Assembly (NCBI GenBank): GCA_963700145.1
Contig: OY969474.1
Span: 4,128,001 to 4,192,000, forward strand
Direction: 5' to 3'
Origin: an uncultured Acidobacteriota bacterium
GTDB lineage: Bacteria > Acidobacteriota > Thermoanaerobaculia > Multivoradales > UBA5704
DNA length: 64,000 bases
Shown: piece after piece, positions 18,368 through 26,880 of the stretch
Layout of the letters: each line of letters starts with the position of its first letter
How positions within the stretch are numbered: the stretch's first letter is position 1
Notes under the pieces: model-generated
What the model saw: only the letters and a program-made list of their open reading frames with translations
Told to the model about the DNA's origin: nothing
Databases searched by the model: none
Translations under genes and position numbers: made by a program

Positions 18368-21300
18368 CTAGAAGCGGAACCCCACCGAGATGCGGTAGGT
18401 ACGGGGCACCTGCAGGTCGAGCTCGTTGGTGGACTTGCCGAAGTTCGCTCCCTTCCGCCAGTGCACGCCCTCGACGGGCTGCGTGGTGAAGGGGTTGAAC
18501 GCCGTCAGGCCGCTGCCGGCGTTGGCCGCGGTGAGCACCGTCTGGTTGACGATCTCCGAGCCGTCGTCGTCCAACACGTTGAGGACCTCGGGCTGCAGGA
18601 AGATCTCCACTTCCTTGCCGAAGGCCCCGAAGGTGAAGCCGTAGTTCAGCGACAGGTTCGTGCTGGTGATGTCGTCGGTGTGGAACTCGTCGCGGTCGGT
18701 GAAGAAGTAGGCCACCGTCGCCGGCGCGATGGCGTAGCCCGGGTTGGTGCGGAAGGTGGCCGGGATGTTCGCCGCAGCGCCGTAAGGCGAGCCGGAGCTG
18801 TAGGTCTGCAGCAGCCCGACGTTGAGCGAGTGGCGCTCGGTGCGGAAGACGTCGTAGGTGCCGAAGAGGCGCAGGCGGTGCCGCTGGTCGATCGACAGGT
18901 CGCCGTGCGGGATGTTCCAGCTGGCCTGCTTGTACTCGGGGAAGGCCAGCGCGTCGGAGCGGATCGGGCCGGAGGTGCCGATCTCCCCTTCCCAGTTCCC
19001 CTCGGCGTGCGACAGCGTATAGACGCCGCCGATGTTGAGCTTGTCGGTGAAGCGGTACTGGAACTGGGTGTGGAGGCCGTCGTACTTGCGCTCGAGGACG
19101 TCGTCATTGTTCTCGACGACCTCGAGGTTCGCCGGCCTGCCGGCCGGCGTGATGACTCTGCCGGTCTGCAGGTCGATGCGGCCGACGTAGAAGTCCTGCG
19201 CGTCGCGGTGGACGAGGTCGGCGCGGACGAGCCCCTTGCCGCCCAGCCGCTTGGTGGCGCCGACCGAGTACTCGATGGTGTGCGGCGAGTCGAGCGAGCC
19301 GCCGCCGATGATCGTGGTGCCGCCCGGGATGTCGACCGTGCGGATGACCAGCGGATCGGTCGTGTTGACGTTGCCGACCGAGTCGAACCAGTCCCACAGC
19401 ATCTGCAGCGCCGTGTCGGCCGGGATCAGCGGCTGGCCGCTTCCCGGCACGTTGATCGCCGGGCCGCGGTACCAGAAGGTGAACGCCGCCGGGTTGCCGC
19501 CGAGCGAGGTGGAGTCGCCCTGCGTGTTGGCGAGCGCCGCGACGTAGTGGCCGTAGCTGGCGTTGAACAGCCAGTCGCCGTCGCCCTTGGGGTCCCAGGT
19601 GAGGCCCAGGCGGGGGCTGACCTTGCTGTCGCTCGCCACTTCCTGCCCGGCGCCGTTGACGCCGTCGTTCTCGTCGAAGCGCACGCCGAGGTTGAAGCTC
19701 CAGCGGTCGTTGAGCCGCCAGCGGTCGTTGAGGAAGATCGAGTTGGTGGTGAAGTCGGTGCCCTGGCTGGAGACCAGGATCGGGTTGAACTGGATGATCG
19801 TGCCGCCGGCGGGCGCCGGGGGGTTCGGCCGCGGGACGAAGGTCGGGAAGAGCTGGCCGTTGGCGAGGATCGTGTTGGAGAGCAGGATGCGGAAGTCGCT
19901 CCCCGACTGATGGTTGTCGGCGGCGCGGATGTCGCTGAAGGTGTCGTAGCCGAGGACCAGGTCGTGCGAGCCGAGCGTCTCGGTGGTCAGGAAGTAGGAC
20001 GCCTTGGCCAGCAGGTTCTCGTTGTCCCGCTCCTCCGGCCGGCAGACGCCGCAGAAGGTCGGGCTGTGCCAGCGCGCCGCCGTGGGCACGTCGACGAACA
20101 GCGTCCCCAGGATCCGGTCGGTGAAGCGTGAGCCGGAGCCGATGAAGGTGAACTCGCGCTCCGAGTACTGCGCCTCGATGAAGAAGTTCTCGGTGATGAC
20201 GCCGTTGTAGTTGAGGGCGCGCAGCTCCTGCGGCGTCTCGCGGTTGTTCAGGCTCGCGAGGTCGAGGACGTTGGTGATGAAGCGGTTGCCGGCCTCGGAG
20301 TCCTCGATCTCGAGGTAGGAGGCGGTCAGCCGGTGGCCCTGGAAGGGCGAGAGCGTGAGCTTGCCTTCGTAGCGCCGCTGGTCGCGCCCCTCGGGGAAGG
20401 GGATGCCGGGGGTGGTGACCAGAGCGTTGGTCGGGCTGCGCACGTTGACCTGGCCGGTGGTCCGCGTCAGCACCCGCTCGAGGTCGCGGCCGGCGAGGAA
20501 GTACCAGGCCTTGTCGCGCCAGAGCCAGCCGCCGAGCGTGGCCTCGTAGGTCTTGTTGAGCTCGTCCGTGCGCTCCGGGTGGAGCGGGTTGCTGCTCGAA
20601 ACCCAGTCGTCGTTGGTCAGGTTGCTGCGGAACGAGCCGTGCAGCTCGTTGCCCCCCGACTTGGTGATCGTGTTGATCACGCCGCCGGCGAAGCGCCCGT
20701 ACTCGGCCGAGACCGACGAGGTCGAGGTGGTGGTCTCCTCGATCGAGTCCTCGATGAAGAGGTCGAAGGGCTGGCCGCGCAGGTTCTCGGTGACGACCAC
20801 GCCGTTGACCAGGAACAGGTTCTCGTGCGACTGGGCGCCCGAGACCGAGATGCCGCTGTCGCGCGAGGCGCCGGCGCGCGGGCCGGTGGACGACACGCCC
20901 GCGGTCAGCAGCACCGCGTCGCGGATGTCACGGTTGACCGGCAGCTTCTCGATCACCTCTTTGTAGTTGTAGGTGGTCGAGGCCTGGCCGCCGGCCGAGA
21001 TGGTCTCGTAGCTGCCGGTGACGACGATCTCCTCGGTCACCCCTTCGAGCACCATCTCCTGGTCGAGCGTCGTGGTCTGCGCCGCCGACAGCTTGACCGT
21101 CTTCTCGGCGTTGGCGAAGCCCTGCATCTCGAAGGTGATGCTGTAGTCCCCCGGCGGCAGCAGGGGGATGATGTACGAGCCGTTCTCCTCCGAGGTGGTC
21201 GAGCGAGTCCCCTGCAGCGAAGGCGACGAGACCGTCACCGTGGCGCCGGGGAGCGCCGCGTCCTCCGCGGTGGTGACCCGGCCGCGCAGCGTCGCCGTGG

Positions 21301-21376
21301 GGAGCCCCTGCCCGAAGGCAGGAAGCGCCGCCAGCAGCACGCCGGCCAGCACGAGGCAGGTTCTGGTCGGTTTCAT
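18368..21376 (-). CDS. TonB-dependent receptor with carboxypeptidase-regulatory-like N-domain (Oar-like)
   Basis: LPGATVT..LPPGDY, SAEYGRFAGGVINTITKSGGN, C-terminal aromatic F; ATG at 21376 after an AGGAG RBS. Confidence 0.9.
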   Translation of the reverse strand: MKPTRTCLVLAGVLLAALPAFGQGLPTATLRGRVTTAEDAALPGATVTVSSPSLQGTRSTTSEENGSYIIPLLPPGDYSITFEMQGFANAEKTVKLSAAQTTTLDQEMVLEGVTEEIVVTGSYETISAGGQASTTYNYKEVIEKLPVNRDIRDAVLLTAGVSSTGPRAGASRDSGISVSGAQSHENLFLVNGVVVTENLRGQPFDLFIEDSIEETTTSTSSVSAEYGRFAGGVINTITKSGGNELHGSFRSNLTNDDWVSSSNPLHPERTDELNKTYEATLGGWLWRDKAWYFLAGRDLERVLTRTTGQVNVRSPTNALVTTPGIPFPEGRDQRRYEGKLTLSPFQGHRLTASYLEIEDSEAGNRFITNVLDLASLNNRETPQELRALNYNGVITENFFIEAQYSEREFTFIGSGSRFTDRILGTLFVDVPTAARWHSPTFCGVCRPEERDNENLLAKASYFLTTETLGSHDLVLGYDTFSDIRAADNHQSGSDFRILLSNTILANGQLFPTFVPRPNPPAPAGGTIIQFNPILVSSQGTDFTTNSIFLNDRWRLNDRWSFNLGVRFDENDGVNGAGQEVASDSKVSPRLGLTWDPKGDGDWLFNASYGHYVAALANTQGDSTSLGGNPAAFTFWYRGPAINVPGSGQPLIPADTALQMLWDWFDSVGNVNTTDPLVIRTVDIPGGTTIIGGGSLDSPHTIEYSVGATKRLGGKGLVRADLVHRDAQDFYVGRIDLQTGRVITPAGRPANLEVVENNDDVLERKYDGLHTQFQYRFTDKLNIGGVYTLSHAEGNWEGEIGTSGPIRSDALAFPEYKQASWNIPHGDLSIDQRHRLRLFGTYDVFRTERHSLNVGLLQTYSSGSPYGAAANIPATFRTNPGYAIAPATVAYFFTDRDEFHTDDITSTNLSLNYGFTFGAFGKEVEIFLQPEVLNVLDDDGSEIVNQTVLTAANAGSGLTAFNPFTTQPVEGVHWRKGANFGKSTNELDLQVPRTYRISVGFRF

Positions 21377-21625
21377 TCGTGCTCCTTTCCGTATCCGTTC
21401 CTCTGAAGACATGGGGCCCTTCGACGGGGAAGGGCTTCAAAGACCGCTGGCCCGCCACGAGCGGGCGGGCTCGATTCAGCGGAAAGCACTGGCTCTCGGA
21501 GCGGCAATTCTCATGCCGCGGTGGGAGGTTGTCAACGACCCACTTAAAGATCTTGGAATCAGCGGTTTACAGGCACCGCTCGGCACCCTCGTTCAAGTCG
21601 CCGGATTCAGCAGCTTGGACGACCC

Positions 21626-22834
21626 TCAGCCGACCGCGGCCGGCCGCTCCCACAGCTCGCGCACCGCCTCGCGCACCCGGTGGCAGAGCGGCTGCGGCGT
21701 GTAGACGCGGTAGCGGTCGATGCGCGCCAGGTGGCGGATGAACTGCGAGGCCTCCTCCAGCGGCTCGAGCGCGCCGTCGAAGCGGCGCACCAGGACGCGG
21801 CTCTCGCCGAGCCGGTGGGAGTCCTTGGCGGAGTTCGAGACCAGCAGGTTGCCGGCGCCGAAGCGCTCGCGCAGCTCCGGCAGCAGCGCCTCGAAGCGGG
21901 CCTTCTCCTCCGGCGCCAGGTGCTCGCGGGTCTCGAAGGCGAGCGGGAAGGCGTCGCGCTCGACGACGGCGCGCGCGTGCACCGAGCCGGAGCGGCGCAT
22001 CCGCCAGAGCACCGCGACGTCGTCCTCGGCGAGGAAGCGCTCGGGGTCGGCCGGCCAGCGCACCCCCTCCTCGGCGAGCCAGGCGGTCAGGTGGAGCTCC
22101 AGCGCTTTGCCGGTCAGGTTGAAGTACACCTGCGTAAACATGTAGTAGCGCGCCATGACCAGCGCCTCGACCGCGTGGACGCCGCCCTCCTCGAGGCCGA
22201 TCCCCCACTCGCCGCTCGCCGGGTCCTCGACCGGGATCAGCGTGTCAAGCAGGCGCTCCAGGTCGTAGCTGCCGTAGCGGACGCCGCAGTAGAGGCTGTC
22301 GCGCAGCAGGTAATCCATCTTGTCGACGTCCATCTCGCCGGAGACGACCTGCGCGAGCAGGCGCTCGACCGGTCCCTCGCCGCCGGCGAGCAGGCGGGCG
22401 ACGTCGGCGGTCGCCAGGCCGCGGCCGTGCCGCGCGAAGATCTCCTCCATCTCGGGCAGCGCGAGGAGGCGCAGCGTCATCGCCTCGTGGTCGAGCCCGT
22501 GCTCGAAGAGCTCCTCGGCGGAGTGGCTGAACGGGGCGTGGCCGAGGTCGTGGAGGAGAGCGGCGGCGCGCACCAGGCGGCGCTCGCGCGCGTCGCGGGC
22601 GGCGGGCAGCAGTCCCTCCCCCTTGGCGGCGAGCGCGTCGTAGACCCGCCCGGCGAGATGCATGGCGCCGAGGACGTGGCTGAAGCGGCTGTGCTCGGCG
22701 CCGGGGAAGACGAGGAAGGTCAGGCCGAGCTGGTGGATCGAGCGCAGCCGCTGCACCGCGCGGCTCCCCACCAGCGCCGCCTCCAGCGGATCGGCGCGCA
22801 CGAAGCCGTGGACCGGATCGCGGAGGGAGAGCAC
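21626..22834 (-). CDS. HD-domain phosphohydrolase (SAMHD1/dNTP triphosphohydrolase-like)
   Basis: RDPVHG, QRLRSIHQLG, HSRFSHVLG, LLHDLGHAPFSH, DVDKMDYLLRD. Confidence 0.92.
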   Translation of the reverse strand: MLSLRDPVHGFVRADPLEAALVGSRAVQRLRSIHQLGLTFLVFPGAEHSRFSHVLGAMHLAGRVYDALAAKGEGLLPAARDARERRLVRAAALLHDLGHAPFSHSAEELFEHGLDHEAMTLRLLALPEMEEIFARHGRGLATADVARLLAGGEGPVERLLAQVVSGEMDVDKMDYLLRDSLYCGVRYGSYDLERLLDTLIPVEDPASGEWGIGLEEGGVHAVEALVMARYYMFTQVYFNLTGKALELHLTAWLAEEGVRWPADPERFLAEDDVAVLWRMRRSGSVHARAVVERDAFPLAFETREHLAPEEKARFEALLPELRERFGAGNLLVSNSAKDSHRLGESRVLVRRFDGALEPLEEASQFIRHLARIDRYRVYTPQPLCHRVREAVRELWERPAAVG

Positions 22835-22905
22835 GCGGGGAGTCTACCGGGGCGGCGGGCTGCCGCAGAGGCCGGTCGAGGGAGTGCCGGGAGCGCTTCC
22901 GCGGC

Positions 22906-23094
22906 CGCCGCGGCGAATCCCGCGGCGCCCGGCGGATTTCCCCCGCCCGCTGCAGCATGTCCCGCAACGCCCGCGGCATTATCCGCAAACGCCGTGGTGT
23001 GTACCGCCGCCGGAAAAATGTGTATCGCCGCCGCCGCGGCATTTCCCGGAACGCCCGCGGCATCTCCCCCGGCCGCCGCGGTATTTCCCCGAGG
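22906..23094. repeat. Degenerate 21-bp tandem array A (~9 units)
   Basis: Units such as gccgcggcatttcccggaacg / cccgcggcatctcccccggcc / gccgcggtatttccccgaggt in 21-bp phase. Confidence 0.75.
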
Positions 23095-23278
23095 TGCCCT
23101 AGGAAGCGACTTCTCGCCCCGCAAGTGCCTTAGATCATGAGACTTGCCTACACGCGCCGGGGATCCGGGTGACCGGTGTTGGGCAGAGGTGGCGCCGCAG
23201 TCCTTCGGCCTGATCGCCGTCCGGCTCAAAGTCGTCGCCGCTCATCGGGTACGTCGAGGCCGCCGTCCCACCAGTCCT

Positions 23279-23430
23279 GAGCGCTTGCACGCCTCGCCCC
23301 GGCCAAGTGCATGGCGCCGAGTTCATGGCGTGGTGGCTGCGCACGGCGGCGCGGACAAGGTAAGTCAGGCGAAGCTCGTGGATGGAGCGTAGCGGCTGCA
23401 CCGCCCGGCTGCCATCGACACCGCTCCACA
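23279..23430 (-). pseudogene. Decayed, diverged fragment of the 5' part of an HD-domain gene
   Basis: Aligns with 22631-22785 (46/56 identical in the core by manual count); translates VQPLRSIHELRLTYLV and, in another frame, HELGAMHLAG. Confidence 0.85.
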
Positions 23431-23441
23431 GGTGGCGCTGT

Positions 23442-23450
23442 TGTTACACT
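23442..23450 (+). promoter_or_regulatory. Putative extended -10 promoter for the RT
   Basis: TGtTACACT about 105 nt upstream of the RT ATG. Confidence 0.4.
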
Positions 23451-23556
23451 AGCCACTGCGGCCGAGGAACGGGACTTCGCTACTGGTCAAAGGCCGGAGA
23501 TACATGCCAACACGGATGGGTTCAGCCTATAGACAGCCACACGAGGCGGCACCTGC

Positions 23557-25128
23557 ATGCCAGTGACCGCTCGTACGATCCTCCGGAGACTGCTTACTAC
23601 TGGGTACTTCCCGCGAGAGCTTCCTCCTACCTTTTCCACGCGCCGCTACGGACTGATCGTGTCGCGCCTATGGAATTCCAGACCAGGTCCCTTTACTTCG
23701 ACTCGAACCACAGCGTCGCCCGCCAAGCACAGCCTGGTCCGCAGCGGACCGCTTCGCCGGCAACTGTCGATACCGAACCCAATCCTCTTCCCGCAGGCAT
23801 GCGATGAGGTCGCGAGTCATTGGGCGACCCTGGAGGCGGCGGCGATGGGGTCTCCATTTACCAGGAGCCGACCAGTCCTTCATAGTAAGGGCGCACGATG
23901 CTTTCTCCCGCTGGTTCCTCGCCAGGGTGATCTAGTTCCTTACAAGGCCGCCGCACGAGCCGGAGCGCGCGTATTAGTTTCCACCGATATCGCTAGATTC
24001 TATGCCTCCATCTATACTCATAGCGTGCCGTGGGCTTTGCACGGCAAGGCTCTTGCGAAGAAGAAGCAACGTGACTACTCGCTCCTAGGCAATCGATTGG
24101 ATAGAGCTCTTCGATTGATGTCGGCCGGCCAGACTATCGGCATTCCTATCGGCCCCGACATCTCCCTCGTAATCGCCGAGACCCTACTGGCGGATGTAGA
24201 CAGGCAGCTCTCGGCGCAGTTTCCTCATGTACAGTTTCTCCGCTACGTCGACGAGTATGAAATTGCCGCAAGGAACCACGAGGAAGCTCAGGCTGCCATT
24301 GCGCAACTCCAACAACTCTTAGCGGGCTTCGAGTTGGAGCTAAATGCGCTAAAGACCTCGCTTCAGACGCTCCCTTGCCGCATCGAACTCCCTTGGGTAT
24401 CTGATCTCCGCTCCCGAAGGATTCGAGCAGCAGTGCCGGCTCAAGCCACGGATCTTGTTGCACTGTTCGATGAGGCGTTCGCCTATGCGCAGAAGCAGCC
24501 AGAGGCACCGGTACTGCGCTACTTAATGGGCAGACTGAAGAATCAACGAGTCGAGCTGCAGAATTGGCGCCTCTACCAGAACCTTCTCCTGCAGTGCATG
24601 ACGGTTGAGCCTGCCACGATTCAGGGCGCGATGACGACTTTGCTTCCACATCTAGAGAACAACTTCGGACTTGAGCGGGGCGCTTTTCTGCGGACGCTGA
24701 ACGGCATCATTGAATACCATGGCCTGCTGGGCCATGGCAATGAGGTCTCTTGGGCTTTATGGAGTCTCATGACCTTGGACCTGAGGATATCGAGGTCGGC
24801 GGTTCGCGCGCTCGAAAAGATGACGGACCCTGCTGTTACCTTATTAGCACTGCATGCGGAGAGCTTAGGGTTGCTTGAGGACCCCCTCGATAAACAGAGT
24901 TGGGTTGCACTGGCAAAGAGAGAGTCTTTGTACGACGAGAACTGGTTGTTGGTGTACGAAGGCGTCAAGAAGGGTTGGTTGCCGACAAATTCGGCTTTCG
25001 TTGAAGCGGATCCTGGATTTGGCTTTCTTTGGCGCCAGGGCGTGGTCTTCTACGACACAGCCGCGATCTTACAACCGAAACCAACAGGAGTTCCGCCCAG
25101 CATCGGAATCGCTCCGAGTTTTTACTGA
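23557..25128 (+). CDS. Reverse transcriptase, UG/Abi (DRT-like) class, with C-terminal helical domain; catalytic motif YVDE
   Basis: GYFPRELPP, RRQLSIPNP, TDIARFYASIYTHSVPWALHGK, QTIGIPIGPDIS, RYVDEY, LELNALKT; visibly lower GC than its flanks. Confidence 0.92.
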   Translation: MPVTARTILRRLLTTGYFPRELPPTFSTRRYGLIVSRLWNSRPGPFTSTRTTASPAKHSLVRSGPLRRQLSIPNPILFPQACDEVASHWATLEAAAMGSPFTRSRPVLHSKGARCFLPLVPRQGDLVPYKAAARAGARVLVSTDIARFYASIYTHSVPWALHGKALAKKKQRDYSLLGNRLDRALRLMSAGQTIGIPIGPDISLVIAETLLADVDRQLSAQFPHVQFLRYVDEYEIAARNHEEAQAAIAQLQQLLAGFELELNALKTSLQTLPCRIELPWVSDLRSRRIRAAVPAQATDLVALFDEAFAYAQKQPEAPVLRYLMGRLKNQRVELQNWRLYQNLLLQCMTVEPATIQGAMTTLLPHLENNFGLERGAFLRTLNGIIEYHGLLGHGNEVSWALWSLMTLDLRISRSAVRALEKMTDPAVTLLALHAESLGLLEDPLDKQSWVALAKRESLYDENWLLVYEGVKKGWLPTNSAFVEADPGFGFLWRQGVVFYDTAAILQPKPTGVPPSIGIAPSFY

Positions 25129-25265
25129 CAGCTGAGTGGCACTGGCGACTCGGTAACGGCCTCCAAGGAATCCAGAAGCTCGTCCCGCCTGATGCCAGAG
25201 GTGCTCAGCAAAGAGATCCGTTCCATTAAGCGGATTGCGGTCGCCGACCGTTGACCGGCCGAGAA

Positions 25266-25961
25266 TCAGTTCTGGTCGGACTTGCCGGCCAGGTGCCGGT
25301 AGGGGCTGAGGAGGTCGACGACCTGGCGGCGGCCGCGGAGGATGGCGAGGAGTGTCAAGGCGCGCTCGGGGACGGCCTCGGTCAGCAGGTGGAGCTTGCG
25401 CAGCACCGGCAGGTCGAGCTCGACGGCGATGCGGTTGACCGTCTCCTCGAAGCCGCAGCGGCCGGCCATGTCTTCGAGCTCCTCGCCACTGAGCGGGAAG
25501 CTCTCGCCGAGGTCCTCGGCGAGGGAGTGGGCGAGCGAGAGGACGGCGCCGCGCACCACCTGAAGCCCGGCGTCCTCCTCGTTGAGCGGGGGATCGAAGA
25601 CCGGGCGCACCACGCCGTGCCGCACCGGCTCCCCTCCGGCCTCGGCGGTGACCTGGAAGCGGAACTCGCCGTAGAGCAGGACGTTGATGCGGCCGTTGGC
25701 GAGGAACTCGACGTCCTCGAGGCGCCCCGCGGTGCCGCCGGGGAAGATCTCCGGCGGGTCGCTCGCCACCCGGCCCTGCGGCGGCTTGAGCAGCACGATC
25801 CCGACGCGCCGCGACTCCTCGTCGCCGTCCACCAGCTCGCGCAGCAGGCGGCGGTAGCGCGGCTCCTCGATGTGCAGCCGCAGGTGCGTGCGCGGGAAGT
25901 GGACGACGTCGGGCAGCGGGAACAGCGGGAGGCGGGTGCCGGCGCTCGGGACCTCGCTCAT
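25266..25961 (-). CDS. LON peptidase substrate-binding domain protein
   Basis: LPLFPLPDVVHFPRTHLRLHIEEPRYRRL. Confidence 0.88.
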   Translation of the reverse strand: MSEVPSAGTRLPLFPLPDVVHFPRTHLRLHIEEPRYRRLLRELVDGDEESRRVGIVLLKPPQGRVASDPPEIFPGGTAGRLEDVEFLANGRINVLLYGEFRFQVTAEAGGEPVRHGVVRPVFDPPLNEEDAGLQVVRGAVLSLAHSLAEDLGESFPLSGEELEDMAGRCGFEETVNRIAVELDLPVLRKLHLLTEAVPERALTLLAILRGRRQVVDLLSPYRHLAGKSDQN

Positions 25962-25995
25962 GGACCTCCAACATAGCAGGCGACATGCCAGGAGC

Positions 25996-26880
25996 GTGAG
26001 ACAATCCGCGGCCGTGCGTCGCACCGCCGTAGCCGCCGCCCTGCTCCTCGCGATCGCCGCTCCGGCCGCCGCCGACGACTTCGACGCGGCGATGGCGAGC
26101 GGCGCGGCGGCGTGGACCCGCCGCGCCCAGGGGCACCGCGGCAGCCGCGCCCAGCCAGCGGCGATCGAGCAGGCCGTCGCCGCCTACGAGCGGGCGGTGG
26201 CGGCCCGTCCCGGCGACGTCGCCGCCCGCTCGCGCCTGCTCCAGGCCCTCCACTTTCGCGGCGAGCACGCCGCCCCCGACCGCGACGCCCGGCGCCGCGC
26301 CTTCGAGCGCGGCCGCGAGATCGCCGAGGCCGGGCTCGACCGCCTCGCCGTCCCGTCGGGAGGGCGTGCGCGCCTCGACAAGATGACGCCGGCCGCCGCG
26401 GCCCACGCGCTCGCCGGCACCGCCGGCGCCGCCGACCTCCATCTCTGGGCGGCGGTCCACTGGGGGCTCTGGGGGGACGCCTTCGGCCGCCTCGCCGCGG
26501 CGCGCCAGGGGGTGGGCGACAAGGTGCGCCGCTACGCGGAGATCGTCGTCGCGCTCGACGAGCGGCACGAGGCCGGCGGCGGCCACCGCGTTCTCGGCCG
26601 CCTCCACGCGCTGGCGCCGAAGGTGCCGCTGGTCACCGGCTGGGTGGACCGCGAGAAGGCGGTCGCGCACCTGCGGCGGGCGGTGGCGCTGGGCCCCGAG
26701 GAGCCGTACAACCAGCTCTTCCTCGCCGAGGCGCTGCTCGAGCACCAGCCGGCGAAGAAGGCCGAGGCCGTCGCCATCCTCCGCCGACTGGTCCAGGCGC
26801 CGCCGCCCGCCGACCGCGCCGTCGAGGTCGAAAAGGTGCGCGAGGACGCCCGCGCGCTGCTGCAGCAGCACGGAGGTTAG
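25996..26880 (+). CDS. Exported TPR-like helical protein (start uncertain)
   Basis: Signal peptide, helical repeats, GGGHRVLGRLHALAP. Confidence 0.7.
   Translation: MRQSAAVRRTAVAAALLLAIAAPAAADDFDAAMASGAAAWTRRAQGHRGSRAQPAAIEQAVAAYERAVAARPGDVAARSRLLQALHFRGEHAAPDRDARRRAFERGREIAEAGLDRLAVPSGGRARLDKMTPAAAAHALAGTAGAADLHLWAAVHWGLWGDAFGRLAAARQGVGDKVRRYAEIVVALDERHEAGGGHRVLGRLHALAPKVPLVTGWVDREKAVAHLRRAVALGPEEPYNQLFLAEALLEHQPAKKAEAVAILRRLVQAPPPADRAVEVEKVREDARALLQQHGG

Follow-up and report, generated by a model that had tools for sequence, protein, structure and literature searches.

A lone DRT6 (UG12) family reverse transcriptase gene with a YVDE motif C, set between two housekeeping genes of an uncultured Acidobacteriota bacterium

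The reverse transcriptase (RT) group UG12, after being rebuilt in Escherichia coli, was seen to protect cells to a moderate degree from T5 and ZL-19 and received the name DRT6, with the protection lost when the catalytic domain of the RT was mutated (accessible parts of Mestre et al. 2022, PMC9226505). The DRT6 homolog of Sphingopyxis sp., 23% identical to DRT4, is described in the accessible text of a later study as an oligomeric enzyme that synthesizes template-independent DNA attached covalently to itself, defends by abortive infection and shows toxicity together with ORF55 of T5, a phage protein resembling single-stranded DNA-binding protein (SSB) (Wang et al. 2025, PMC12783706). Here we describe a gene of this family at positions 23557..25128 on the forward strand of a 64,000-nucleotide stretch of DNA (the window) from an uncultured Acidobacteriota bacterium (GenBank assembly GCA_963700145.1, contig OY969474.1, positions 4,128,001 to 4,192,000). 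Family, phenotype, chemistry and structure of DRT6 have already been published, and the gene is a further member of DRT6, one that carries glutamate in place of the second catalytic aspartate of its motif C.

Equally, DRT4 has been described, as far as the accessible text of the same study goes, as a hexamer composed of a dimer of trimers, which produces random untemplated single-stranded DNA (ssDNA) primed by Tyr125, a residue absolutely conserved across 174 DRT4 systems (PMC12783706). Two metal ions are held by D149, D240 and D241 and the incoming deoxynucleoside triphosphate (dNTP) by R75, N271 and K274; the double replacement D240A/D241A served as the dead mutant, and E202 and H204 were placed in the interface between the trimers (PMC12783706). 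According to the portions available of two preprints, activated DRT4 cuts RNA at an H160/D192 site in the inter-trimer interface, and this activation requires the binding of deoxyguanosine triphosphate (dGTP) together with the DNA product (10.64898/2026.10.21.760695, 10.64898/2026.10.27.754916). In the first of these, again as far as available, H160 is the catalytic residue of the RNase and D192 its partner, and the flexible C-terminal part of DRT4 binds the triggering phage SSB (10.64898/2026.10.21.760695). For DRT6, no report of an RNase activity was found in the accessible literature, outside which lie Wang et al. (BBRC 791:152955) and Rong et al. (Science 2026). Natural variants of motif C with Asp-Glu (D-E) or Asp-Asn (D-N) in place of Asp-Asp (DD) in UG/Abi RTs were not found in print either, the supplementary alignments of PMC9226505 and PMC12783706 not being covered. 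A literature search on a YxDE motif in RTs gave no paper on it among those listed, and the kinetics of the D185E, D186E, D186N and D186A mutants of the YMDD motif were equally not found by literature search.

The gene in the window starts with ATG and encodes 523 amino acids (aa) in an open reading frame (ORF) which, by the ORF list and its translation, has no internal stop. An earlier note made from the letters of the sequence had called it an intact ORF of lower GC content with RT motifs, and the three motifs it quoted are all there, with RRQLSIPNP covering aa 67-75, DIARFYASIYTHSVPWA aa 144-160 and GIPIGPD aa 195-201. The Pfam model RVT_1 matches aa 131-270 and scores 38.3 bits (cut-off 29.6); together with the E value of 1.4e-149 for the PADLOC model Drt6, this puts the assignment as RT far above chance. 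This Drt6 model (PDLC03748, derived from UG12) is matched with 497.3 bits over aa 8-505 and profile positions 3-483 of 511. Among the other PADLOC profiles, the UG15-derived Drt4 model PDLC03752 reaches 251 bits, RT_UG30 195 bits and RT_UG14 155 bits, with AbiK and AbiP2 scoring 116-120 bits in the palm only (aa 132-274). Two older PADLOC models which are named Drt4, PDLC02177 and PDLC02179, score 485 and 468 bits; as they also come within approximately 10-45 bits of the Drt6 model, or above it, in 12 of 12 other family members scanned, their label does not separate DRT6 from DRT4. The NCBIfam equivalog for Drt4, NF041749, does separate DRT4 from the protein, which reaches 238.5 bits and stays below the cut-off of 450. 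As an aside, automatic annotation may call DRT6 genes DRT4, given the scores of PDLC02177 and PDLC02179.

Comparison with solved structures leads to the same family. By sequence, the best match among them is 9wy8_A, a chain of the hexameric DRT6 (E 2e-73, aa 9-503), with the match to solved DRT4/UG15 chains confined to aa 10-285 (E 1.5e-21) and the match to AbiK and Abi-P2 chains confined to the palm (aa 135-273, E 1e-11 to 1e-15). An AlphaFold2 model of the protein, computed from 140 family sequences, has a mean predicted local distance difference test score (pLDDT) of 96.0 and a predicted template modelling (TM) score of 0.94. The top match of this model in the Protein Data Bank by Foldseek is again 9wy8_A, entitled 'Cryo-EM structure of the hexameric DRT6' (E 8.6e-35), on which it superposes with TM scores of 0.89/0.94 and a root-mean-square deviation of 2.1 Å over 500 columns at 30% identity. 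The next fold matches are DRT4 with a TM score of approximately 0.80 and AbiK with approximately 0.68, AbiK and Abi-P2 together ranging from 0.62 to 0.68. Because the Drt6 profile is matched over the full length and 9wy8_A is matched in both sequence and fold, the protein is a member of DRT6 (UG12) and a class 1 UG/Abi RT. The kinship with DRT4, AbiK and Abi-P2 that had been proposed for it, as a class 1 RT with an alpha-helical-repeat domain, is thus borne out by profile, sequence and fold matches, but the suggestion that the system is undescribed, or its subgroup uncharacterised, finds no support, as the RT falls inside DRT6/UG12 with its published phenotype, chemistry and structure (9wy8).

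The domain layout can be read along the gene. RT fingers and palm occupy approximately aa 1-278 (23557..24390), as delimited by the RVT_1 match, a mixture of strands and helices up to aa 271 in the model and the HMMER alignment with DRT4 over aa 10-285. An alpha-helical repeat (alphaRep) domain follows in place of a thumb at approximately aa 279-507 (24391..25077), a layout taken from DRT4 (accessible parts of PMC12783706). The model is nearly all helix over aa 279-504 with pLDDT values of at least 90, in agreement with the long helical C-terminus noticed earlier. The protein ends in a flexible, conserved tail of aa 508-523, PTGVPPSIGIAPSFY (25078..25125), with the family consensus PTGVPPSxGxAPxFY and pLDDT values of 63-71. 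This C-terminal peptide, which is conserved family-wide after the last helix, may by analogy match the flexible C-terminus of DRT4 that binds SSB.

Conservation of the active sites was assessed in an alignment of 251 family proteins, derived from two overlapping searches (120 + 150 proteins), the second of which counted 1016 matches at E < 1e-30. The HMMER alignment with DRT4 places the metal ligands D149 and D240 on D144 and D232, the dNTP-binding residues R75, N271 and K274 on R68, N263 and K266, and the RNase residues H160 and D192 on H155 and D182. At D144, the Asp of motif A (23986..23988), each of the 250 filled rows has D, as do all 251 rows at D232; together with H155, D182, R68 and K266 these residues are conserved in all or all but one of the 244-251 filled rows, with N263 kept in 239 of 251. 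H155 (24019..24021) is H in 250 of 250 rows and lies in the aligned segments IYTHSVPWA / IYSHSIPWA, and D182 (24100..24102) is D in 250 of 251 rows and lies in NRLD / DKLD. As the RNase pair of DRT4 aligns with two family-invariant residues, a shared RNase output is plausible for DRT6, a prediction made from the conservation of H155 and D182 (250/250 and 250/251).

The priming residue is a different matter. No Tyr is conserved at aa 100-141 in the 251 family proteins, and the conserved hydroxyl residues near the position of DRT4 Tyr125 are S102, with S in 215 rows and T in the protein described here, and S/T104 (243/251). On this conservation, T102 and S104 are the candidate priming residues of the protein.

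Signs of decay were sought in the columns with a conservation of 85% or more. The protein departs from 5 of 89 such columns, where it has T102 instead of S, S189 instead of Q, E233 instead of D, Q245 instead of E and G469 instead of A. Departures counted over the 242 rows with a length of 480 aa or more give a family median of 4 with an interquartile range of 3-7, and 48% of these rows depart as often or more. Since the aligned catalytic and dNTP-binding residues are kept and the number of departures is near the family median, the sequence suggests that nothing points to decay of the RT gene.

Motif C reads Y230-V231-D232-E233 (TAC GTC GAC GAG, 24244..24255), exactly as first reported, and aligns with Y238-I-D240-D241 of DRT4. 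The first Asp is thus present, the second is a Glu with its carboxylate kept, and strict YxDD is not matched. Of the 251 family proteins, 238 have D at position 233, 7 have E and 6 have N, that is, 13 of 251 or 5% are not D, so that a strict YxDD does not delimit DRT6 as an evolutionary family; the first 120 proteins alone gave 113 DD, 4 D-E and 3 D-N. Every row without D that is aligned at the remaining catalytic sites keeps those residues, P0010 (306 aa) and P0230 (425 aa) being fragments which are unaligned at some of them. Equally, 160 family loci (80 + 80) from metagenomes and genomes, a set that overlaps the 251 proteins and is not independent of them, comprised 154 DD, 4 D-E and 2 D-N. 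The six loci without DD have open frames of 503-783 aa, and all four D-E loci read GAA in frames of at least 519 aa.

The distribution of the exchange over the family is patchy. In a quick IQ-TREE phylogeny that comprises the 37 nearest full-length rows, the protein belongs to a clade of six rows with a Shimodaira-Hasegawa-like approximate likelihood ratio support of 100, and all rows outside the clade are DD. Within it, the protein itself (P0001) and P0002 carry YVDE, P0003 and P0004 YVDD, and P0005 and P0006 HMDE, which amounts to D-E in four of the six members. Despite their 87% identity, P0002 and P0003 have different residues at position 233, E and D. In a FastTree phylogeny of 249 rows, calculated with column 233 left out, the 12 rows without D imply no fewer than 11 state changes, a number to be taken as 'many' and not as exact since the topology is approximate. 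Thus D-E is enriched in the clade but not fixed, and elsewhere D-E and D-N occur sporadically in intact genes. Whether YxDE is conserved in its clade had been raised as a means to recognize a subgroup; the flip between close sisters and the sporadic recurrence across the family speak against it. The protein falls within a characterised DRT family, one half of what had been named beforehand as evidence against novelty, but the other half, that all close homologs have YVDD, does not hold, with D-E in four of six members of the nearest clade. On the sequences compared, the active site of DRT6 has its soft spot in the second Asp, and D-E is neither the signature of a separate subgroup nor a private lesion.

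A second peculiarity of the clade is the Q189-D190 pair (24121-24126), which in D-state rows has Q in 219 of 238 and D in 207 of 238 and is replaced by S/T-A/G in six of six members of the clade, its two DD members included. By HMMER these positions fall at K199-R200 of DRT4, two residues before E202/H204 of the inter-trimer interface. Q-D is retained in the remaining E and N lineages, so that loss of the pair is no general compensation for loss of the Asp. Co-variation with E233 was defined as a residue common to five or more of the 7 E rows and rare (<15%) in D rows; besides 233, only position 511 qualifies, where 5 of these 7 have G, so that no convincing compensatory site for E233 was found.

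The gene differs in composition from its surroundings. The RT ORF has a GC content of 0.565 against 0.709 in the rest of the window with the island excluded, and a GC content at third codon positions (GC3) of 0.618 against 0.86-0.99 in host-like ORFs, picked by GC3; the RT gene is compositionally foreign. In three same-genus genomes the flanking genes adjoin, with gaps of 72 bp (G004; flanks 94-96% identical), 30 bp (G001; 91-93%) and 16 bp (G003; 83-84%), and a contig of sequencing run X2 departs from the window upstream of 25264; together, these observations delimit an insertion of 2.4 kb at approximately 22848..25264. Its foreign low-GC core spans approximately 23411-25263 (GC 0.572), the left approximately 560 bp (22848-23410) having a host-like GC content of 0.71. 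The RT protein was not found in four of four same-genus genomes, and among 40 relatives no match exceeded 37% identity; DRT6 family members are spread over very diverse phyla. No second gene with a family match is present in the insertion, and PADLOC on 30 ORFs of the window gave, apart from the RT, no substantive match, three partial ones only and no defence island. Furthermore, across 74 family loci, each with at least 2.5 kb on either side, the largest neighbour family is common to 8, which fits a single-gene system. The RT gene was acquired horizontally and solitarily, from a donor of lower GC content, as a single-gene cassette. The descriptions of the gene as stand-alone and as a candidate single-gene defence system, put forward earlier, therefore both stand, the latter now with membership of the DRT6 family and no conserved partner.

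Family, fold, the residue set other than E233, the solitary insertion and the recurrence of E and N variants were computed here, and with them we consider it probable that the gene is a functional, horizontally acquired DRT6 in which E233 is tolerated and may alter the preference for a metal or the rate without abolishing synthesis. The oligomer, its priming, product, trigger and RNase output as well as the activity with E233 are drawn from work on DRT6 and DRT4, and the following scheme is to be read by analogy with these enzymes. The protein would assemble into a hexamer, as its homologs DRT6 and DRT4 suggest, in which each protomer would make untemplated ssDNA, priming it with a hydroxyl side chain of its own. 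The polymerase site would be formed by D144, D232 and E233, with the dNTP predicted to be held by R68, N263 and K266. In uninfected cells, the DNA product would be kept short by trimming. Upon infection, an SSB-like protein of the phage would bind the DNA product and possibly also the conserved C-terminal tail (aa 508-523), which would switch the enzyme into a toxic state and lead to abortive infection. The toxic output might be cleavage of RNA at H155/D182, as at the His/Asp site of DRT4.

Several points weigh against a functional enzyme with a tolerated E233. That D240A/D241A is dead in DRT4 and that disruption of the catalytic domain abolishes defence by DRT6 indicate that the site matters, and retention of D in 95% of the family (238/251) indicates that selection usually favours D. 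Replacement of the second Asp strongly impairs the RT of HIV-1. An assay of a D-E enzyme at this site was not found in the literature. The clade also lacks the otherwise conserved Q189-D190 pair. Furthermore, the gene is compositionally foreign (GC3 0.62, with 0.86 or more in host-like ORFs), a search upstream of it gave no sigma-70-like site, and the GAG codon is without independent read support.

An alternative which we regard as unlikely, if worth keeping in mind, is that the polymerase is attenuated. E233 would then strongly lower or change DNA synthesis, be it by dependence on Mn2+, by short products or by binding of dNTP without extension, and defence would persist through the intact His/Asp RNase site and the sensing parts, D-E and D-N being re-tuned alleles with another threshold. 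In the catalytic set, the second Asp alone varies, in 13 of 251 proteins against none of 250-251 at D144, D232, K266 and H155, and the occurrence of both E and the uncharged N suggests that the exact geometry of a carboxylate is dispensable. Changes of the second Asp in the GDD motif of poliovirus polymerase alter its metal requirement. H155 and D182 are invariant, which is compatible with a retained RNase, and the activation of the DRT4 RNase rests, in the accessible preprint text, on dGTP binding as well as on the DNA product. Equally in favour, the pre-catalytic state of DRT4 has no metal density at the D240/D241 site, as the available part of the preprint describes (10.64898/2026.10.21.760695). 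On the other hand, going by the title of Rong et al. 2026 (Science), polymerization of DNA is what turns on the cleavage of RNA by DRT4, so that an enzyme that does not polymerise should not fire, and the RNase on which such a mode would depend is not reported for DRT6 in the accessible literature. Furthermore, the flip between D and E in sisters of 87% identity resembles a near-neutral exchange and not a change of mode.

A farther-reaching and more speculative thought, which we hold to be rather improbable, is that the D-E and D-N series in DRT6 constitutes a recurrent natural allelic series that tunes the untemplated polymerase in metal dependence, rate or product length or composition, and thereby re-sets the threshold of the toxic output triggered by phage; the clade of the protein, with its loss of Q189-D190, would then be a distinct functional subtype.

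Clearly less probable still is a copy that is a non-functional passenger in its host, either crippled by D233E or unexpressed, in which further damage has not yet accumulated. Its unameliorated foreign composition suggests a recent arrival, no promoter-like site was found, the absence from same-genus genomes implies that the gene is dispensable, and a decayed fragment of the neighbouring gene within the insertion (see below) implies that the region has been rearranged. However, the frame is open through 523 codons and the 5 departures from 89 conserved columns compare with a family median of 4. With 37-66% identity to the protein, five more full-length proteins (P0002, P0005, P0006, P0139 and P0160) and four loci whose frames are 519 aa or longer also have D-E, which implies that it is no fresh lesion in each of these intact relatives. 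A recently crippled copy, one of the options originally offered for the YVDE motif, is hence unlikely, the same change being present in intact relatives of 54-66% identity and the other catalytic residues being kept.

That the true codon is GAC or GAT for Asp and the GAG a sequencing or assembly error is very improbable, for although it would take a difference of one base only and the near-identical contigs of run X1, which show 0 differences, leave 24232-24486 outside their coverage, E stands at the same site in independent assemblies of relatives (P0002, P0005, P0006 and the four loci with GAA), and a contig of run X3, from another study, spans the codon at approximately 97% identity with four differences, two of them located (24275 and 24285) and two unlocated, and none listed at the codon.

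Besides the RT gene itself, the insertion and its surroundings contain features that belong to the host or to the history of the site. On the left, the insertion borders on a host gene with HD and HD_assoc_2 domains by Pfam (dGTPase-like; 21626..22834, reverse strand), beyond which lies a gene for a TonB-dependent receptor (18368-21412, reverse strand). On the right follows a host gene with a LON substrate-binding domain by Pfam (25266..26024, reverse strand), which is 83-96% identical in same-genus genomes, and beyond it homologs of LolA, YajC and SecD. Both flanking genes stand outside the system. The presence of a dGTPase-like HD gene beside a dNTP-using defence RT is a coincidence, as the HD gene adjoins the LON-domain gene in relatives without the RT. 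In front of the RT core, a stretch of 116 nt (23298..23413, forward strand) repeats the 5' part of the HD-domain gene (22649-22768) in direct orientation and degenerate form, at approximately 79% identity; this copy was recovered by blastn, as repeat families D3/D5 and by a search of the own genome. The orthologs of the HD gene in the same genus are 84-95% identical, and the fragment upstream of the RT core may come from a more distant donor with the same neighbour or may be an old, decayed duplication. Also in the left part, a GC-rich intergenic repeat with a period of 42 nt (22900..23089; family D1) recurs at three further sites of the own genome at 74-81% and at several in same-genus genomes.

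Vehicles of mobility were not apparent. The island contains no ORF for an integrase or transposase, and its flanking repeats are weak or short, with no convincing terminal repeats; no transfer RNA gene was found in the window and Rfam gave 0 matches in 22700-25400. Four weak terminator-like hairpins lie mostly inside the RT ORF.

Two additional RT genes were observed elsewhere in the own genome. One, at L009:1285-2943, encodes 552 aa and matches the PADLOC models for a retron-type RT-Protease_XI over the full length with 554 bits. The other, at L010:1303-2928, encodes 541 aa and matches PADLOC RT_UG22 over the full length with 375 bits; UG22 is, in the accessible text, among the UG groups with an inconclusive prediction of defence (PMC9226505).

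The analysis has several implications. The strongest candidate of the window for an undescribed system has been corrected to a member of a defence family with known phenotype, activity and structure. The E and N residues at the second Asp, present in 5% of the family and requiring at least 11 changes, provide natural variants with which the role of that residue in protein-primed untemplated synthesis can be probed. Equally, the invariant His/Asp pair across the sampled DRT6 proteins makes a shared RNase output directly testable. Furthermore, the locus is a clean case of a lone defence gene set between two housekeeping genes in a genome of high GC content.

Compared with the described systems, the gene stands closest to DRT6, as represented by the Sphingopyxis sp. 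homolog and 9wy8, with which it has in common a profile match over the full length, fingers and palm followed by an alphaRep domain without a thumb, a single-gene organization without conserved partner and every invariant residue of the family. It differs from the tested protein, to which it is only 30% identical, in its motif C (YVDE versus YVDD in 9wy8) and, together with its clade of six members, in the otherwise conserved Q189-D190 pair, which is of S-A type in the clade and S-A in the protein itself. DRT4 (UG15 of E. coli; 9vdo, 9vdv, 9l9s and 21ou) is a sister family with a shared fold (TM score approximately 0.80), whose aligned catalytic, dNTP-binding and RNase His/Asp residues are conserved in the protein; however, the DRT4 equivalog stays below its cut-off, sequence similarity extends over aa 10-285 only, and the priming Tyr125 aligns with L119, with column 120 of the family being variable. 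AbiK and Abi-P2, from Lactococcus and P2-like prophages, are equally class 1 Abi polymerases with an RT followed by helical repeats and with protein-primed untemplated synthesis, but the protein aligns with them in the palm only and scores 116-120 bits on their PADLOC models versus 497 bits on Drt6.

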